A stretch of DNA of 22,932 bases from IMG/VR virus record IMGVR_UViG_2690316152_000015, positions 1 through 22,932 of that record, one strand, 5' to 3'. Under the pieces are notes generated by a model that saw only the letters and a list, made by a program, of their open reading frames with translations, did no database searches and was not told the origin of the DNA. Positions 14,044 through 22,932 of this stretch are shown one piece after another. Each line of letters begins with the position of its first letter. Positions within the stretch are counted from its first letter, which is position 1. The stretch is from a virus (lineage: Duplodnaviria; Heunggongvirae; Uroviricota; Caudoviricetes). The position numbers and the translations under genes are program-made.

Positions 14044-15948
14044 TTAGAACGATGTTACCCAGCTACGGCCTCTATTTGGACGTCTGGCGATGTTTTGACG
14101 TTGTGGTCGTGTGATTGGCTTACTTTCTTCTATTTGCTCGTCAGATTGCGTTTCAGGAGCTTTTACGGGTTCTTCTGGTTCGCGGTTCAAACTATCTTTG
14201 ATGGCTTCCAGTTTTTCCCATGACATTTTATTAAGCACATGACGATAACTAGCCACGGCATATGTAAGACAGTCCAATCCCTCGTTACGTTGCTGTCCAA
14301 CTTTTACCCAACGTGTCGTATTACCCTGCCGTTTCAACTGTTCAGATAACAATTGTTCGCAGTAGTCATCAGGAACGTCACCAATCTGGAAGACAGTATG
14401 CGGATCGCTGTCTCTCAAGTTCCGGTTAATCATTTCACGGATCATCGTCTTAAGATTGTTTACGCCCAGAATTTTAAGGGTAAAACCGCCCGTTCTTGTG
14501 TCCTTGACCGGAAGGATTGGAGCATCAACATTGCTTGCACCCTTAATGGCGCATAGGTTTTGCCACCTAGTGCAGAAGCGATAGATCACGTTTGTAGCTC
14601 GTCCGTTCGATGAGTCCACGAAAGCAGATAGCATCGGGATTCGTTGACCGGATCGGGTATAGAATTTAGCTTTCAGGAAGTTGTAAAGCTGGTCATATGC
14701 TGGTGATTCGTGGCGTTCGCAGTTCACATCATAGAATGATCGGTGATCAACTACGCATATCCCCTTACGAGAGATACCCAGCAAGGTAGATTCAAGACGG
14801 TCTTTTTGCTGGTCAACACCACTAACCAGAGCAAGTACATCATCAGGAATATTGTCTAGACTAATATCAGTTTTCAGCGTTTCCAGTTCGTCGGCTGTGC
14901 GGTCTTCGTTAAGATCATCGAAGGTTTCACCGAGGACTGTATTGTAGAACGTTGCCAGTGACATATTCGCGTAGCTATCAGCAAAGTCCACCACACACGC
15001 ACGGATAGAACTAAACGGAGACATAAGGCGGTTAGCATGAAAACCGATTACTTCCGCGTTTGGTTCGGTTGCTACCCATTCACCTTGAGCAACAGCACGT
15101 AGGCGAGCCCCTTCTGTCCAATCGGTTTCACATGACGGGCAACGGTAAACGGCTGTGTCAGGATTCGGCAGTGATTTACCATTGATTACATGCCAATCAA
15201 AGAAAACTCTACTCCATTCCATTACGTGTTTGTGTCCGCAATGCTGGCAAGGAACATAGTATTTCCTCTTATCCGAGAGTTCCCATTGTTGGTTTATCGC
15301 CCCATCACGAGCGGTTGGAGTGGAAGCAATTATGATCCTTGCGTCATCCCCGAAAGTGGTTGCGCGTTGTTCCGCTAGTTGGATCGGGTTCCCTTCGTCT
15401 GACTCATCAGCCGCATCAACTTCATCAAGAATAATCAAAGGGAGTGTTTTACCGCGAAGATGTGACGGACTATTCAACGACATGAAATACATGAATGATC
15501 CGTTACGAAGCTGAATAATCGATGAGTTGTTAACGGCATTGCGATCTGACTTGTCGGTGATCATCGCCTTTAATTCTGGGGTTGCCTCTAATACTGGCTT
15601 CACCTTACCCGCAATCCATGAGTTCAATTCTCGAACGTTTGCTTGCAAAACACCGATGTTAGTAGGGTTGCTGGCGATCCTGTGAAAGATAATACCGTTT
15701 AGCACAAGAGTTTTACCCAACTGCGCCGAGCACTTTAGAACAATTTTTCGCCTATCTTCGGTGATCGCGTCCATCATTCCACGTTGGAAGGGATGCAATT
15801 TAATTAGCGATCCGGCTTTAACACCATCGGTAGCAACTACATTAGCCTCTACCCATTCGCTAGGTTTCATGGCTTTAGGTGGGCGAATTGCCGCAGAGAT
15901 ATTTTTAAGAATCTTTTTTAATTTGGCCTTATTAGAAATCAGTTTCAT
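14044..15948 (-). CDS. terL: Terminase large subunit, GpA (lambda A)-like
   Basis: 634-aa ORF; deviant Walker A (CSAQLGKT), Walker B (LIILDEVD), zinc-finger-like CxxC pairs and C-terminal nuclease region as in lambda gpA; first gene of the minus-strand late operon. Confidence 0.9.
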   Translation of the reverse strand: MKLISNKAKLKKILKNISAAIRPPKAMKPSEWVEANVVATDGVKAGSLIKLHPFQRGMMDAITEDRRKIVLKCSAQLGKTLVLNGIIFHRIASNPTNIGVLQANVRELNSWIAGKVKPVLEATPELKAMITDKSDRNAVNNSSIIQLRNGSFMYFMSLNSPSHLRGKTLPLIILDEVDAADESDEGNPIQLAEQRATTFGDDARIIIASTPTARDGAINQQWELSDKRKYYVPCQHCGHKHVMEWSRVFFDWHVINGKSLPNPDTAVYRCPSCETDWTEGARLRAVAQGEWVATEPNAEVIGFHANRLMSPFSSIRACVVDFADSYANMSLATFYNTVLGETFDDLNEDRTADELETLKTDISLDNIPDDVLALVSGVDQQKDRLESTLLGISRKGICVVDHRSFYDVNCERHESPAYDQLYNFLKAKFYTRSGQRIPMLSAFVDSSNGRATNVIYRFCTRWQNLCAIKGASNVDAPILPVKDTRTGGFTLKILGVNNLKTMIREMINRNLRDSDPHTVFQIGDVPDDYCEQLLSEQLKRQGNTTRWVKVGQQRNEGLDCLTYAVASYRHVLNKMSWEKLEAIKDSLNREPEEPVKAPETQSDEQIEESKPITRPQRQNIARRPNRGRSWVTSF

Positions 15949-16035
15949 GTAATTACCCTCATTACGAAATATGAAGGTATTTATTAAGTTGTTGATTTTT
16001 TGATAAATACGGGTATTAAGATTTAAGGGGGTTGT

Positions 16036-16641
16036 ATGCTAATTAATCAGCAACAAAGAGATGAATTAGAATTAGCCTTTTCTTGTTGTACCGATCATGA
16101 ATATCGTTTACCAGTTAAACACAAGCATTTAAAAACAGATATAACCACTTCTGGCTTTAGTCGTGAGGACGCGAAAGAGATTTTAATAGAATTGTACCGC
16201 GATAATGGATATAGAGATCTTCACAACTTCTTTAGAAAGCATCGCACATCACATACAGAGTTTCAGAGAGTCCGAGAATGGTTTGATTTTGACATTAAAC
16301 GGTTCTATCGAGTAGATGGAGGCCAGATCTATAGATTGCAGTGGAAGCCGATCAGAGAAGTGTTGAAACAGACAAGGGATAATATGGCTATTACAATGCC
16401 ACGTAACATAGCTTTTAAGAAAGGATATGGTGATACAAGGGAACTATTCGTTGAACTCGCTAACGTGAAGTACAGCCACTATTACAACGATCCTAAATCC
16501 TTCTTTGAAGTGCTTCGCAAGGTTGATATAAGTCGGGGTACATATTATTCACGGTTGAAGAAGTACGGGATTAAGGTTGAGTTCTTTATGAGTATTGACG
16601 ATGGAGAACTTTTTCCTATAAAATCTAAGTCCTCTAAATAA
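16036..16641 (+). CDS. Hypothetical protein with C-terminal HTH-like segment; low GC, rare codons (moron-like)
   Basis: 201-aa ORF with Shine-Dalgarno AAGGGGG; rich in AGA, ATA, TTA codons unlike neighbours; C-terminal DISRGTYYSRLKKYGIKV resembles the HTH of the two small proteins at 16671-16904 and 20012-20191. Confidence 0.55.
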   Translation: MLINQQQRDELELAFSCCTDHEYRLPVKHKHLKTDITTSGFSREDAKEILIELYRDNGYRDLHNFFRKHRTSHTEFQRVREWFDFDIKRFYRVDGGQIYRLQWKPIREVLKQTRDNMAITMPRNIAFKKGYGDTRELFVELANVKYSHYYNDPKSFFEVLRKVDISRGTYYSRLKKYGIKVEFFMSIDDGELFPIKSKSSK

Positions 16642-16670
16642 AGGTGAACATTCACTTTAATTTGGAGAAA

Positions 16671-16904
16671 ATGACTATGACTACTAAAGCTACTCGCGGT
16701 CGCCCTGCCCGTTTTAACGCTGAACAGATGGCTGATATTGCCTACGCTTACTATACAGCGGATCGTGGTAAGGAAGCGAAAGAACAGATTCTTAGTGAAC
16801 ATGGGATCTCAATCGCCCAATTCTATAAGAATATGAAGAAGTTAGACATTAAATTCTATGTTCAGATCGGTGATGGTCAGATCGTAGAAGCAACAGGTTT
16901 TTGA
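16671..16904 (+). CDS. Small HTH DNA-binding protein (small-terminase or transposase-type HTH)
   Basis: Likely start is the ATG at 16671 (GGAG 5 nt upstream) rather than the track GTG at 16644; motif GRPARF...ILSEHGISIAQFYKNMKK follows the GRP..F...G.S..T.YRWL pattern of Sf6-type TerS and IS3 OrfA HTH domains. Confidence 0.55.
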   Translation: MTMTTKATRGRPARFNAEQMADIAYAYYTADRGKEAKEQILSEHGISIAQFYKNMKKLDIKFYVQIGDGQIVEATGF

Positions 16905-16912
16905 TTCTCTTT

Positions 16913-16938
16913 GCCACTCTTCGGAGTGGCTTTTTTAT
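16913..16938 (+). terminator. Intrinsic terminator for the plus-strand HTH genes
   Basis: GCCACUC-UUCG-GAGUGGC (7-bp stem, UUCG tetraloop) followed by U6. Confidence 0.75.
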
Positions 16939-16949
16939 ACCTACAGAAA

Positions 16950-16978
16950 ACAAAAAAGCCCCTGAAATTCAGGGGCAA
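16950..16978 (-). terminator. Intrinsic terminator for the Rha-family gene (convergent partner)
   Basis: Hairpin GCCCCUGAA/UUCAGGGGC preceded by A6 on the plus strand, giving a U-tract on the minus strand. Confidence 0.7.
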
Positions 16979-17800: not shown

Positions 17801-17886
17801 AGTATTAATTCCCCTTAAACGGTTTAGTGATTTGGTCCTCCTAGTTCCGGCATCTCAACCGGAACAATTTTATTTATAAGAAGTTT

Positions 17887-18039: not shown

Positions 18040-18097
18040 AATTAACATCCTCTTTACAAATCTAGGTCAAATCGGTTCAAAGTTGTCAAGTGCGACA

Positions 18098-18126
18098 ATC
18101 ATAAAAAAGCCAGAAAAATTTGTCAA
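18098..18126 (-). promoter_or_regulatory. Sigma70-type promoter directed toward the Rha gene, with overlapping palindromic operator
   Basis: On the minus strand TTGACA (18126-18121), 17-nt spacer, TATGAT (18103-18098); the -35 is one half of the inverted repeat TTGTCAA-N6-TTGACAA (18120-18139); further TTGACA-like hexamers at 18065-18157. Confidence 0.5.
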
Positions 18127-18161
18127 CACCCCTTGACAAGATGCCAAAGGGTTGACCTAAC

Positions 18162-18629
18162 TTACAGCATATCTAAGCCTTCATCATAGCCATAGAAGCC
18201 ATTCTGAGAAGAAAAAGCGATTGGTGCATAGTCATCGTCATCTTCGTCTTGTTCGTCTTCTTCTGGGGCTTCCTGAGCGTTTTCTTTACCGTAGTTAAAC
18301 ATTGCTTCGTCCAGTTCACGAAGAGTCAAGAAGCTACCCAGATCAATGTCACCGGAACGGACTTCAAACGGCAGATCATCACGAACAATAATTGCTGGTA
18401 GATTCTGGTACTTTAAGCGGTCTTCATCGGTGAAGCAGTTAACAACGATGGTCGGCTTCTTATTACGGAAAAACGCATACCATGCACTAGAGAAATGGGA
18501 TTCATCAGAGTTGAAAAGAATGTTGTAACGACGTTCAACAAAGATTTTCATTAACTTGTCATTGTGGAAGCTATCAGCATCAAAACCTAACAGGATGAAA
18601 GGAGTAGTGGTAGTCATTTTATGGTTCAT
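18162..18629 (-). CDS. Hypothetical acidic protein
   Basis: 155-aa ORF with AGAGGA Shine-Dalgarno; C-terminal third strongly acidic (EEDEQDEDDDDY); no recognisable catalytic motif. Confidence 0.55.
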   Translation of the reverse strand: MNHKMTTTTPFILLGFDADSFHNDKLMKIFVERRYNILFNSDESHFSSAWYAFFRNKKPTIVVNCFTDEDRLKYQNLPAIIVRDDLPFEVRSGDIDLGSFLTLRELDEAMFNYGKENAQEAPEEDEQDEDDDDYAPIAFSSQNGFYGYDEGLDML

Positions 18630-18835
18630 AGTGGAAATCCTCTAAAAGAAAGTGAATCAAGTAAGTACACTATTATTTATAACGAGAAAATTTTATCTCT
18701 TTTAGAAGGTGATTGTATTCAGTCGGGCTAAAGCCCTCCTTCATAGATTGTCTAAAAGTACATCAAACGTGGACCCTTCATTATGTAAATTATAGATCAT
18801 ACTCGTTTGAAGAAATAATAATCAGAAAGCAATAT

Positions 18836-18889: not shown

Positions 18890-19135
18890 AGTGATCTAGA
18901 ATCATCTAGTAACCAGTTAACTACTATTATCTTCAAAGTGATTATTACTATCTTTCTAGAATCAGTTAGTAACTAGTATTAAATCCCTTTCGAGAAAATC
19001 CTTTCAGAAGTGATTCTCGATGCCACGCAGTGGCGTCGCAGACGTTTGAGAGTGAGCGAAGCGAGCAAGCAAACTAGTTAATTCCTTCTAAGACCATCTA
19101 GTATCATCTAGTTTAAATTAGTTGTTACTAGAAGC
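18890..19135. repeat. CTAG-rich direct and inverted repeats (candidate operator array)
   Basis: Nine CTAG tetramers in about 240 bp; repeated CTAGAATCA[TG][CT]TAGTAAC[CT]AGT at about 18896 and 18957, related CATCTAGT copies near 19096-19115; internal palindromes AGTTAACT and ACTAGT. Confidence 0.5.
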
Positions 19136-19261: not shown

Positions 19262-19447
19262 GCTTTTGCCCCTCACTAAGTTAATGTTTTATAAAGAGTT
19301 TTTCTCACCATTCCTTTTCGGGGGCAAATTTCAGGGGCAAAAATTAGATTTTCAGGGGCAATTATTGACATTTCAGGGGCAAAAATGGGATAGTGGAATC
19401 TTGGGGATTTTGTTCGGGGGCAAAAATTCAAAATTTCAGGGGCAATT
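19262..19447. repeat. Iteron-like array: six direct and one inverted copy of TTYCRGGGGCAA(A) with 21-bp periodicity
   Basis: GGGGCAA cores at 19321, 19334, 19355, 19376, 19417, 19439 (spacings 13, 21, 21, 41, 22) plus inverted copy at 19266-19272; followed by perfect palindrome CTATCAAA-TAT-TTTGATAG (19449-19467) and an AT-rich tract. Confidence 0.6.
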
Positions 19448-19641: not shown

Positions 19642-19670
19642 TTGACAACTGTCAAGAACTATTTTATACT
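19642..19670 (+). promoter_or_regulatory. Near-consensus sigma70 promoter with palindromic operator over the -35
   Basis: TTGACA (19642-19647), 17-nt spacer, TATACT (19665-19670); the -35 lies in the inverted repeat TTGACA-AC-TGTCAA. Confidence 0.65.
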
Positions 19671-19676
19671 TTTTCT

Positions 19677-19834
19677 CGTTGGTGGGGGTTGAAATTTTCT
19701 AAACAGTCCCCATATAGATGATAAGCAAGAATTTCCGCGTTATAAATACATGTGTGAAATGATTGTTCACTTCTGAAAATCCCCTGATTCACTGTTAATT
19801 CATACAGCACTGGTTAGATATACAGTGCTTTTTC
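19677..19834 (+). ncRNA. Candidate short transcript or attenuated leader from the promoter at 19642
   Basis: Predicted start about 19677; intrinsic terminator AGCACUG-10 nt loop-CAGUGCU followed by U5 at 19806-19834; duplicated GATATACAGTG and TTATAAATACA[AT]GTG motifs in the leader; the first downstream gene starts at 20012. Confidence 0.3.
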
Positions 19835-20011
19835 GGTTGAATAATGTACGAATTGATTAATTATTAATCTTCTCTTTAGCAATTCGTGCTCCCACTGATC
19901 GGATATACAGTGGTTTTACAGGGTTTTCTGAAAATCATTTTATAAATACAAGTGTTCAGAGCGAAAAGCTCTTTTTTAAGATTTTTTAAACCTAACAATA
20001 GGGGATTAAAA

Positions 20012-20191: not shown

Positions 20192-20224
20192 TAACCTTTC
20201 ACTGAGAATTATATGATGGCTTTA

Positions 20225-20262
20225 AAAATAAAAAAGCCCCCTTGCGGCAACAAGGAGGCTTT
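20225..20262. terminator. Stem-loop flanked by A-run and T-run (possibly bidirectional terminator)
   Basis: AAAAAA-GCCCCCTTG-CGGCAA-CAAGGAGGC-TTT; 8 of 9 stem positions pair. Confidence 0.45.
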
Positions 20263-20305
20263 CAACATGACACATTAACTAACAAGAGTATTCAGGAGTA
20301 TTTAT

Positions 20306-21265
20306 ATGTTATTTTCCGCTAACTTTTTCACTAACGAAGTAACCAACGCTAAAGCAGTTATCAAATTTGGCACCGAAGCAAACAAGAAGATTCAGCCGAA
20401 AGTTGTTGCTCATGTTTCCTTTGCGCAGCAGAAATCCGCTTTCGCTGGCTTTAAAGCACATCGTGAAGCACTGATCGCGGCTGGCTTTGGTGTTGACGGT
20501 AAACTGCCTAACGGCGTTCGTAAAGCAATCGACCGCGTTAAACCTGCTAAAGACGTTGCAGTAGACCACATCGTTACTTTCACCGTTAAGAACTCTTCTG
20601 AACTGTTCCACCTGGTGATTGCTGGTGATACTGCTATCGTTTCCGCTCCTAACATGGATTTTCAGGATACCGCTGATTGTCAAATCACCTTCGGTCGTCG
20701 TAAAGAAGTTACTGGAAAAGCTAAACTGAACTTCACCAAATCCGGCAATACTTACTTTGCTGTATTCTTTAACAGCCATGCTACCGAGAAAGAAGTTGTA
20801 GAACTGGTTGCATATGAAGGTGAAGAAAAAGCACGTATTGAATCCTGCGACGCTTTCGTAGAACTGGAAGCACAAGTTAAGGCGGTTGCTCCTGTTGTTG
20901 AAGATCGTCTGGCTGCACTGGAAGCAGAGATTGCAGAACTGAAAGCTGCACTGAAAGAAAAAGACCAGATCATCGAAGCCCAGAAAGCTGAGATTGAAGA
21001 ACTGAAAGCTAAAGAAGTTGCTCCAGTGGCAGTTGAAGCCGAACAGGAAGTTGAATCTAAAGACTTCTTTACTCAAGCGGTTGAAGCTAAAGACAAACAA
21101 GCTCTTTGGATTCTGCTTAACGAAAAACGCTCTGTGACCGACGTTGCAGAGTGGAACAAATATCTGGTTAAGAAAAACGGTACTTCTGTTCAATTCATCG
21201 ATTTAATGACTGTTCAAGTTTTTGATGCGTTCGAAAATGTGTTCGACGTTCGCAAAGCAGCTTAA
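20306..21265 (+). CDS. Hypothetical protein with central coiled coil; codon usage of a highly expressed gene
   Basis: 319-aa ORF with CAGGAG Shine-Dalgarno; strong preference for CTG, CGT, GAA, AAA, GCT codons; heptad-like segment RLAALEAEIAELKAALKEKDQIIEAQKAEIEELKAKE; function not recognised. Confidence 0.6.
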   Translation: MLFSANFFTNEVTNAKAVIKFGTEANKKIQPKVVAHVSFAQQKSAFAGFKAHREALIAAGFGVDGKLPNGVRKAIDRVKPAKDVAVDHIVTFTVKNSSELFHLVIAGDTAIVSAPNMDFQDTADCQITFGRRKEVTGKAKLNFTKSGNTYFAVFFNSHATEKEVVELVAYEGEEKARIESCDAFVELEAQVKAVAPVVEDRLAALEAEIAELKAALKEKDQIIEAQKAEIEELKAKEVAPVAVEAEQEVESKDFFTQAVEAKDKQALWILLNEKRSVTDVAEWNKYLVKKNGTSVQFIDLMTVQVFDAFENVFDVRKAA

Positions 21266-22331: not shown

Positions 22332-22380
22332 TAGACGTTGACCAACTCAACATCTTTCATACATTTATTTATAACGCGTT

Positions 22381-22932
22381 TTAAGACACATCAAATTCAT
22401 CGTCTTCTTCTGGTTCTTGTTCCGGTTCATCCATTAATGGTAATTCTTCTTCCTCGTCTTCTCCTAAATCCGCATTTTCGAACAAGTCCCCTACTTCGTT
22501 TAAACGACGCTCGATGATCTCCCTTAGCTTATTCTTCAATGTTTTCTGATCGGTGGCAGATTCGAGAATTTCTAAAGCGTCGATTGTGGCGATCTGCAAA
22601 ATAGTCTGTTTCACCTTTCCGCAATATTCCGCTAGTTCCTGTTCTACATAACCGACCGGAATCAGGAGATTCATCGCTTCCTGGTTCTCTCGTTCGGCTG
22701 CATCCGCGAGTGCTCTTTCCCGGCGTAATTTCTCGACATCTATTTGTTCTTTGATAGAAGTTTCTTTGAGCGGATTAATGATGTTCTTCAAGACCCATTC
22801 TGTCCCCTCTTTGGCTGGCACGCGTCGTGTATTGGTATTAAATGGCATTCCTCGTTCTTGCCATTTCTTAGCGGCGTTAATTGTATAGCCGTATAAGCGG
22901 GAAATTTCTGTAAGGGTTAATTCTTCTTTCAT
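22381..22932 (-). CDS. Nu1-like terminase small subunit (winged-HTH DNA-binding N-terminus); start coincides with the window edge
   Basis: N-terminus LTLTEISRLYGYTINAAKKWQERGMPF parallels lambda Nu1 (LADIFGASIRTIQNWQEQGMPV, from memory); shared EKLRRE segment; acidic C-terminal tail; located about 6.4 kb from the large terminase gene. Confidence 0.55.
   Translation of the reverse strand: MKEELTLTEISRLYGYTINAAKKWQERGMPFNTNTRRVPAKEGTEWVLKNIINPLKETSIKEQIDVEKLRRERALADAAERENQEAMNLLIPVGYVEQELAEYCGKVKQTILQIATIDALEILESATDQKTLKNKLREIIERRLNEVGDLFENADLGEDEEEELPLMDEPEQEPEEDDEFDVS

Follow-up and report, generated by a model that had tools for sequence, protein, structure and literature searches.

The closest described relatives of the protein modules considered here are the C-terminal helix-turn-helix (HTH) domains of the small serine recombinases Hin, Gin and Tn3/gamma-delta resolvase (HTH_7), and those of the IS3 and IS630 transposases (HTH_23, HTH_28 and HTH_Tnp_1). 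We analysed positions 1 to 22,932 of the IMG/VR virus record IMGVR_UViG_2690316152_000015 (22,932 nt, hereafter the window), and this work concerns three small genes in it, P1, P2 and P3. Most of a prophage fills the window, and an AT-rich block of 6.4 kb, in which P1-P3 lie, separates the gene of the large terminase subunit (TerL) from that of the small subunit (TerS). Unlike the serine recombinases and the transposases, the P1-P3 products are stand-alone proteins (201, 75 and 59 residues, respectively) with no fused catalytic domain. Sequence comparison identifies four homologous modules in them.

A layout of cop gene, antisense RNA and rep gene has been documented for the plasmids R1 (copB-copA-repA) and pMV158 (copG-RNAII-repB) (PMC5717011, PMC4485353). 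As in these replicons, P3 is small and basic and stands directly ahead of the gene of a putative initiator, p319, with iterons nearby. In the spacer between P3 and p319 there is likewise an element that resembles an antisense promoter, and a minus-strand terminator that is conserved. The locus differs from both plasmids in that P3 has no sequence or fold relation to their proteins, the element is a prophage and not a plasmid, and repression and the antisense RNA are predictions.

P3 also recalls lambda Cro and CII: a strong promoter, its -35 hexamer overlain by a palindrome, has P3 as its first gene, and P3 lies upstream of the initiator gene. It departs from them in lacking an HTH_3 signature and in the structured leader of about 340 nt that intervenes between promoter and P3. 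No divergent CI-like repressor of the lambda kind was found, and the gene opposite P3, p155, encodes an acidic protein. Only P3, and not P1-P2, occupies an early-operon position of the Cro/CI kind. Mor and C of phage Mu, two small paralogous HTH proteins that activate middle and late promoters with a poor -35, are named here as a comparison; P1-P3 do not match the Mor-family hidden Markov model (HMM).

Four homologous modules in three proteins

All three open reading frames (ORFs) are present in the window on the plus strand. P1 (16036..16641) encodes 201 residues with a pI of 9.4, in which an N-terminal helix is followed by two tandem HTH modules. Module A spans residues 41-100 (16156..16335), with helices at 43-57, 62-68 and 73-83 and strands at 87-93 and 98-100. 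Module B spans residues 133-194 (16432..16617), with helices at 135-148, 153-162 and 167-176 and a strand at 181-187. P2 (16677..16904) encodes 75 residues comprising a basic N-terminal arm, RGRPxRF, three helices and a beta-hairpin. An alternative start lies at 16671; P2 homologs in the databases are called at 74-75 residues or shorter, corresponding to the start at 16677. P3 (20012..20191) encodes 59 residues and is the shortest module, with a basic arm, A[KR]PV[RK]F, three helices and the hairpin deleted.

P2 and P3 share 36% identity across 56 residues (BLASTP, E 3e-10), which bears out the claim, made earlier from the sequence alone, that the two align along their length. The same sequence-only reading placed an HTH-like segment at the end of P1. 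This segment is module B, residues 134-182 of which match P3 (E 0.003); the reading missed the second copy, module A, residues 41-98 of which match P2 (E 0.025). Family profiles of the two P1 modules, P2 and P3 were then compared by hhalign. Module A matches module B at 2.5e-6, P2 at 3.3e-7 and P3 at 8.5e-5; module B matches P2 at 4.1e-6 and P3 at 5e-4; P2 matches P3 at 3.7e-11. All six pairs are thus significant (5e-4 to 3.7e-11) and the four module types fit one alignment block, so the count is four modules in three proteins and not the three first proposed. Because modules A and B match each other as well as P2 and P3, P1 is, on sequence comparison, a tandem duplication.

Homologs were gathered in 39 clusters for P1, 19 for P2 and 6 for P3, every one annotated as hypothetical. 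The clusters stem from E. coli/Shigella, Salmonella, Proteus and Providencia. Those of P1 show 49-98% identity, come from E. coli, Salmonella and Proteus, and contain a Pfam domain in no case; members of the P3 family occur in Providencia and Salmonella.

AlphaFold2 models of P1 and P2, built with the family alignments, support the HTH prediction of the sequence-only reading, giving three helices in P2 and two such units in P1. The P2 model (predicted local distance difference test score, pLDDT, 80) has a disordered basic N-terminus ahead of helices 15-27, 32-41 and 46-53 and a beta-hairpin of strands 60-64 and 68-72. In the P1 model (pLDDT 71, predicted template modelling score 0.65) an N-terminal helix and a disordered linker precede two units, residues 43-100 and 135-193; the pLDDT of the modelled block is 82-91 for module A and 76-91 for module B. 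The beta-hairpin extends both P1 modules and P2 at the C-terminal side.

Module B contains DISRGTYYSRLKKYGI, a classic pattern of HTH turn plus recognition helix. In P2 a GRP-type minor-groove arm precedes the three-helix HTH; P3 has A[KR]P at this place, the P1 modules have no arm, and P10 and R12 are invariant in the alignment of P2 and P3 (P2 arm RGRPxRF). An HTH_7 repeat unit can be aligned to the arm and helices of P2 (RGRPARF...GISIAQFYK with GRPSVIT...NISRSTLYR, hhalign 7e-5), and the most divergent P2, from locus L040, reads KKRGRKP...GVSTATLYRW. Every module is basic, with a pI of 9.0-9.6.

A profile of all four module types, run exhaustively as an HMM search against 1.84 billion representatives, found just 27 proteins at E <= 1e-3: the three families themselves, a divergent P1 (P0070), a few P3-like proteins of 56-60 residues, and multi-repeat proteins. 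Ten of the matches are longer; searched against Pfam, nine gave strong HTH_7, HTH_23, HTH_28 or HTH_Tnp_1 matches and P0070 gave none. The profile thus reaches the HTH type of IS3 OrfA, as the sequence-only reading had supposed. The set P0067-P0075, P0078 and P0081 holds proteins of 320-980 residues made of 4-8 HTH_7/HTH_23-type units in tandem, P0075 and P0073 among them. The distant P3-like proteins P0079, P0080 and P0085 (E 2e-4 to 7e-4) also precede larger ORFs (at least 170-295 residues). No iterons were seen 5' of P0079 and P0080, the two loci examined, and the observation is a weak lead only.

Direct searches with P1-P3 gave little. Pfam HTH_7 stays below its gathering score, the best E being 0.059, in 2 of 36 module sequences, and the full proteins do not match it. 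HTH_Tnp_1 (E 0.099) and HTH_28 (E 0.12) are approached by single members only, again below gathering score. Neither the HTH_3/XRE nor the HTH_17/Xis profile matches P1-P3 or their modules. P3 has no Pfam or NCBIfam family match to CopB or CopG, and its closest modelled paralog, P2, is a three-helix HTH. No solved structure was found as a sequence relative of the modules, Foldseek against viral models gave nothing at E < 0.3, and a search of genome contigs with the P1 profile gave nothing. Marginal structure matches to the SigI6 C-domain (E 0.028) and Peptidase M23 (E 0.044) were rejected as noise. A resemblance of P3 to T4 gp33 'Trans_coact' (Pfam E 0.029) was also rejected, as no PDB or profile search supported it.

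With high confidence, the modules can be regarded as DNA-binding HTH modules. They constitute a new, narrow family inside the resolvase/Hin/IS-transposase branch, set apart by the C-terminal beta-hairpin, which is present in three of the four module copies and distinguishes them from HTH_7-type domains, and by the stand-alone and tandem architectures. The tandem P1 may be compared with bipartite HTH regions such as the paired domain, Tc3 and the CENP-B N-terminus. It differs from them in that its modules are mutually paralogous and each hairpin-ended, and in that no transposase is attached to P1. Nor does any transposase gene adjoin P1-P3, the insertion sequence (IS) at 1-888 being unrelated.

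Iterons, promoters and the P3-p319 operon

P3 opens the initiator operon: in all 34 loci that have P3, the next gene is the p319 counterpart, an ORF of 150 residues or more. In the window p319 (20306..21265) lies on the same strand as P3 behind a spacer of 114 nt, in which no plus-strand terminator was found. The p319 product is unannotated and has a central coiled coil. Six iterons, TTTCAGGGGCAAA, form an origin-like array (19316..19446) in the non-coding region, and the origin region is AT-rich (GC 0.32). Relatives replace TTTCAGGGGCAAA by arrays of TAGTGTAGGTT, and Proteus by CTAGGGATG at an 11-bp period; further iteron types also occur. Among the 34 loci the iteron type matches the N-terminal allele of p319 (about 170 residues) perfectly (17/17, 13/13 and three unique pairs). 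Because of this co-variation, p319 is likely an iteron-binding replication initiator.

The iteron type does not match the alleles of P1, P2 or P3. The iterons, on which the sequence-only reading had proposed binding assays, were therefore rejected as targets of P1-P3. The lineage is highly mosaic, and the alleles of P1, P2, P3, TerL, TerS, p155 and Rha assort independently. The recognition-helix segments are conserved within each family, GISIAQFYK being identical in three of the five P2 allele classes, Proteus included. Since these segments are conserved though the alleles assort freely, any target is expected to be a conserved sequence. A seventh 'iteron' at 16967 was discarded; it is the terminator hairpin of the Rha-type gene and is present in loci with other iteron types. 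This bidirectional terminator hairpin, GCCCCTGAAATTCAGGGGC (16958-16976), is an inverted pair of iteron cores that travels with the Rha-type gene, and its iteron resemblance appears coincidental.

The P3-p319 spacer holds a single hairpin, which has its T-run on the minus strand alone. On that strand a TATAAATA-type -10 element, ATATAAATA (20299-20307), overlies the spacing between the Shine-Dalgarno sequence and the ATG of p319, and the hairpin (20263-20232) and its T-run follow. The terminator hairpin is kept in 26 distinct relatives, with double changes in 6 of 13 pairs. The minus-strand element, the conserved hairpin and the T-run therefore predict a countertranscript of about 70 nt (20222..20307, minus strand).

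A near-consensus sigma-70 promoter, TTGACA-17-TATACT (19642..19670, plus strand), faces P3, and the palindrome TTGACAACTGTCAA lies over its -35. A second near-consensus sigma-70 promoter (18126-18098, minus strand) also has a palindrome over the -35, and the pair points outward. The palindromes TTGTCAAGTGCGACAA and TTGTCAACACCCCTTGACAA (18083-18139) and TTGACAACTGTCAA (19642-19655), at or near the -35 hexamers of the two promoters, look like operators; in relatives their arms are conserved and the centre varies.

The 9-mer TTATAAATA occurs in five exact copies against 0.36 expected, and none of 100 shuffles reaches five. The copies lie at 17871-17879 (minus), 18674-18682 (minus), 19740-19748 (plus), 19940-19948 (plus) and 22366-22374 (minus). 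All are intergenic, inside the block, co-oriented with the next gene and without a -35. Copies with a single mismatch form a back-to-back pair in the TerL-P1 intergenic region, and another covers the ribosome-binding site of p319 on the minus strand (20299). The element precedes almost every transcription unit of the block. In the divergent TerL-P1 region (15949..16035) these copies are TAATAAATA (15978-15986, minus) and TGATAAATA (16001-16009, plus); a Proteus relative has an exact TTATAAATA before P1 at the place of TGATAAATA. In the P3 leader (19740..19948, plus strand) the second of the two exact copies is followed by a hairpin (19958-19972) and a T-run. This element-plus-hairpin layout is kept in Proteus (L003) and in E. 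coli relatives, and L040 keeps both copies. TTATAAATA is conserved in Proteus and L040 while its flanks vary. It contains the T4 late-promoter consensus TATAAATA (PMC1524935). No relative of T4 gp55 or gp33 was found for this phage.

Other repeats occur nearby. The P3 leader has two 25-nt direct repeats (19808-19832 and 19893-19917), each with an internal palindrome, CACTG-N10-CAGTG, and upstream of the leader four TCTAGAATCATCTAGTA repeats flank a GC-rich hairpin region (18895-19113). The p155 gene (18162-18629, minus strand) is kept beside the origin region in all relatives. Its product is strongly acidic (pI 4.3), with DEDDDDYAPIAF near the C-terminus followed by a tail of about 20 residues; the motif resembles the C-terminal tail of single-stranded DNA-binding protein, and p155 may be a recruiter or mimic of the host replisome.

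The prophage and its lineage

At the left end of the window an IS transposase gene (1-888, GC 0.54) lies directly against the tape-measure gene (891-2642), which is truncated and far shorter than its counterparts in relatives. The prophage copy here is probably defective. Tail, fibre, capsid-protease and portal genes follow, and then the gpA-type TerL (14044-15948, minus strand). The 183-residue Nu1-like TerS (22381-22932, minus strand) matches phrog_57 at 3.3e-15 and Pfam Phage_Nu1 at 0.016. It is the last gene before attR in ycdX, and the regulatory and replication block of 6.4 kb splits it from TerL.

The lineage is carried by 58 of 5426 complete E. coli genomes (about 1%), with relatives at 85-90% DNA identity, and related proteins and loci are also known from Salmonella, Proteus and Providencia. 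In E. coli GN4741 (NZ_CM177112.1, 2799509-2834835) the element is about 35 kb long and inserted in ycdX; this copy is intact, as is that of strain DEC5A. At its far end lies the gene of a 559-residue serine recombinase (Resolvase, Recombinase and Zn_ribbon_recom domains). No cultured relative was found. The best TerL match among deposited phages, phage DCP80, is only 44% identical, the 6.4-kb block has no match among them, and P1 and P2 have no DNA or protein relatives in the phage database. A literature search on ycdX-integrated prophages gave nothing relevant. No repressor, Cro, excisionase or replication protein can be recognised in the lineage; Pfam and PHROG scans detected no CI-, Cro- or Xis-type protein anywhere in the element, in agreement with the earlier remark that its regulator is missing.

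The gene order is TerL (minus), P1-P2 (plus), variable leftward genes, p155 (minus), about 1.4 kb of non-coding DNA, P3-p319 (plus), further genes and TerS (minus). It is kept in Proteus columbae and in divergent E. coli relatives, and the core order P1-P2 ... P3 occurs in 33 IMG/VR prophage contigs as far as these reach. P1 and P2 form an independent unit that has a promoter and a terminator of its own and stands back-to-back with the late operon of TerL. The intrinsic terminator (16913..16930, plus strand) was found by terminator scan and has a compensatory variant in the second P2 allele class. In L040 the non-coding region, P1 (split), P2, P3 and the initiator gene follow in series on a single strand; P1, P2 and P3 are therefore tied to the replication operon. 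Just beyond the TerS end, L040 (12543-14174) encodes a 543-residue protein with reverse transcriptase and TIR domains (RVT_1, TIR), probably a defence gene at the prophage border.

Possible roles of P1, P2 and P3

The most likely function of P1-P3 is to regulate transcription in the early and replication region of a temperate prophage of about 35 kb with a plasmid-like replicon, a reading held with moderate confidence; the assignment of individual roles to P1, P2 and P3 is less certain than the model as a whole. The module, of about 55-60 residues, would bind DNA through a three-helix resolvase/Hin-like HTH, preceded in P2 and P3 by the basic N-terminal arm. P3, cotranscribed ahead of p319, would be a small repressor setting the expression of the initiator, as CopB does in R1, CopG in pMV158 and Cro in lambda. 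P1, with its two modules, would be a built-in pseudo-dimer. The most likely targets of P1-P2 are the conserved TTATAAATA promoters, which lack a -35 and are taken to depend on an activator; the divergent TerL/P1 pair is among them. Since a small basic protein, a predicted antisense RNA and an initiator with iterons reproduce the R1/pMV158 layout, a Cop/Cro-like regulator of initiator expression is the most likely role for P3. Of the regulators that the sequence-only reading had suggested, the Cro-like kind is thus favoured by the position of P3; an excisionase is disfavoured, as the gene of the serine recombinase is at the opposite end of the prophage. The analysis demonstrates the paralogy, the predicted fold, the conservation, the synteny and the independence from the iterons, and we infer DNA binding, the targets and the sign of regulation.

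Several points weigh against regulation by P1-P3. The full proteins and the 36 module sequences reach no Pfam, PHROG or NCBIfam model at threshold. The Cop analogy is positional and not homologous, CopG being a ribbon-helix-helix protein. The antisense RNA is a prediction, and Rfam ctRNA_pGA1 scores 23 bits on the spacer, below its gathering score of 45. In a k-mer association scan no DNA site outside genes co-varies with P2 or P3 alleles, all associated k-mers lying inside or directly abutting the genes, and the pR-like palindrome does not track the P3 alleles; for these two reasons no operator can be assigned. Because the prophage copy in the window, with its IS in the tape-measure gene, is probably defective, expression of P1-P3 here is uncertain.

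Other functions for the modules have to be weighed against transcription regulation. They might bind or bend origin DNA, or recruit host factors together with p319, as accessories of replication. P3 is always cotranscribed with the iteron-linked initiator, in L040 all three genes are in series with it beside the repeat-bearing non-coding region, the RGRP arm of P2 is AT-hook-like, and the origin region is AT-rich. However, the P1-P3 alleles assort independently of iteron and initiator type, and P1-P2 lie 2.4 kb from the iterons of the window behind their own terminator, so that such a role is unlikely. One or more of P1-P3 could be recombination directionality factors (RDFs) that steer the large serine recombinase to excision. 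The element uses such a recombinase, no RDF is recognisable in the prophage, and the HTH_7-like arm and three helices of the modules recall how small serine recombinases build their DNA-binding domain. On the other side, P1-P3 lie about 25 kb from the recombinase gene on the prophage map, or several kb across attP when the element is circular; four small unannotated genes adjoining the recombinase are better positional candidates; and in every relative P3 stays with the initiator gene. Moreover, the RDFs known for large serine integrases mostly work through contact with protein, not through an HTH. An RDF role is accordingly given little credence.

A part in packaging, with P1-P2 recognising cos or aiding terminase assembly as a split or auxiliary small terminase, is very unlikely. 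In its favour, P1-P2 adjoin the gpA-type TerL, the separation of TerS from TerL by 6.4 kb is unusual, and the HTH type also occurs in small-terminase N-domains, of which a remote relative gives a weak Sf6_terminase match. But the complete Nu1-like TerS shows that P1-P3 are not the small terminase, as the sequence-only reading had also held. The modules have no similarity to it (hhalign E 0.54), and Pfam and PHROG searches assign P1-P3 to no TerS family. P1-P2 point away from TerL instead of lying upstream on its strand, P2 and P3 end right after the module with no oligomerisation domain, and in L040 P1-P2 do not adjoin TerL. Least credible is the proposal, also made in the sequence-only reading, that P1 is a moron, a recently acquired low-GC gene acting on the host or on other phages. 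The AT-richness of P1 is real (GC 0.373, the structural genes having 0.433), and the gene uses rare codons, 6 AGA and 2 AGG among 19 Arg and 5 ATA among 13 Ile, the top proportions in the window; its function is not assigned to any known kind. Yet the whole block is AT-rich (0.385), and the GC3 of P1 (0.366) equals that of its neighbours. P1 keeps the same position in E. coli and Proteus relatives and is paralogous to two core genes, and the moron proposal was rejected on these grounds. The conserved gene order marks P1 as a core gene.

Within transcription regulation a more specific proposal concerns the TTATAAATA element. P1-P3 might be promoter-specificity factors of a temperate phage whose units all start at a -35-less TTATAAATA: P1-P2, TerL, Rha, p155, P3 with the initiator gene, the antisense RNA and the post-TerS genes. 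The two-module P1 would then be a sigma-like or appropriator-type adaptor. We regard this as improbable. If true, a lambda-sized prophage would use an unrelated HTH family to serve a promoter class of the T4-late style.

The modules thus represent a new family of a familiar kind, the small phage HTH regulators, and their interest comes mainly from the uncharacterised phage lineage and from the regulatory anatomy around them. Protein classification gains a small, stand-alone, Hin-like HTH family with a beta-hairpin that current libraries miss. For the lineage, the four-module family supplies concrete candidates for the regulatory switch, and a directly testable wiring diagram results when the iteron-linked initiator, the predicted antisense RNA and the TTATAAATA promoter class are added to it.

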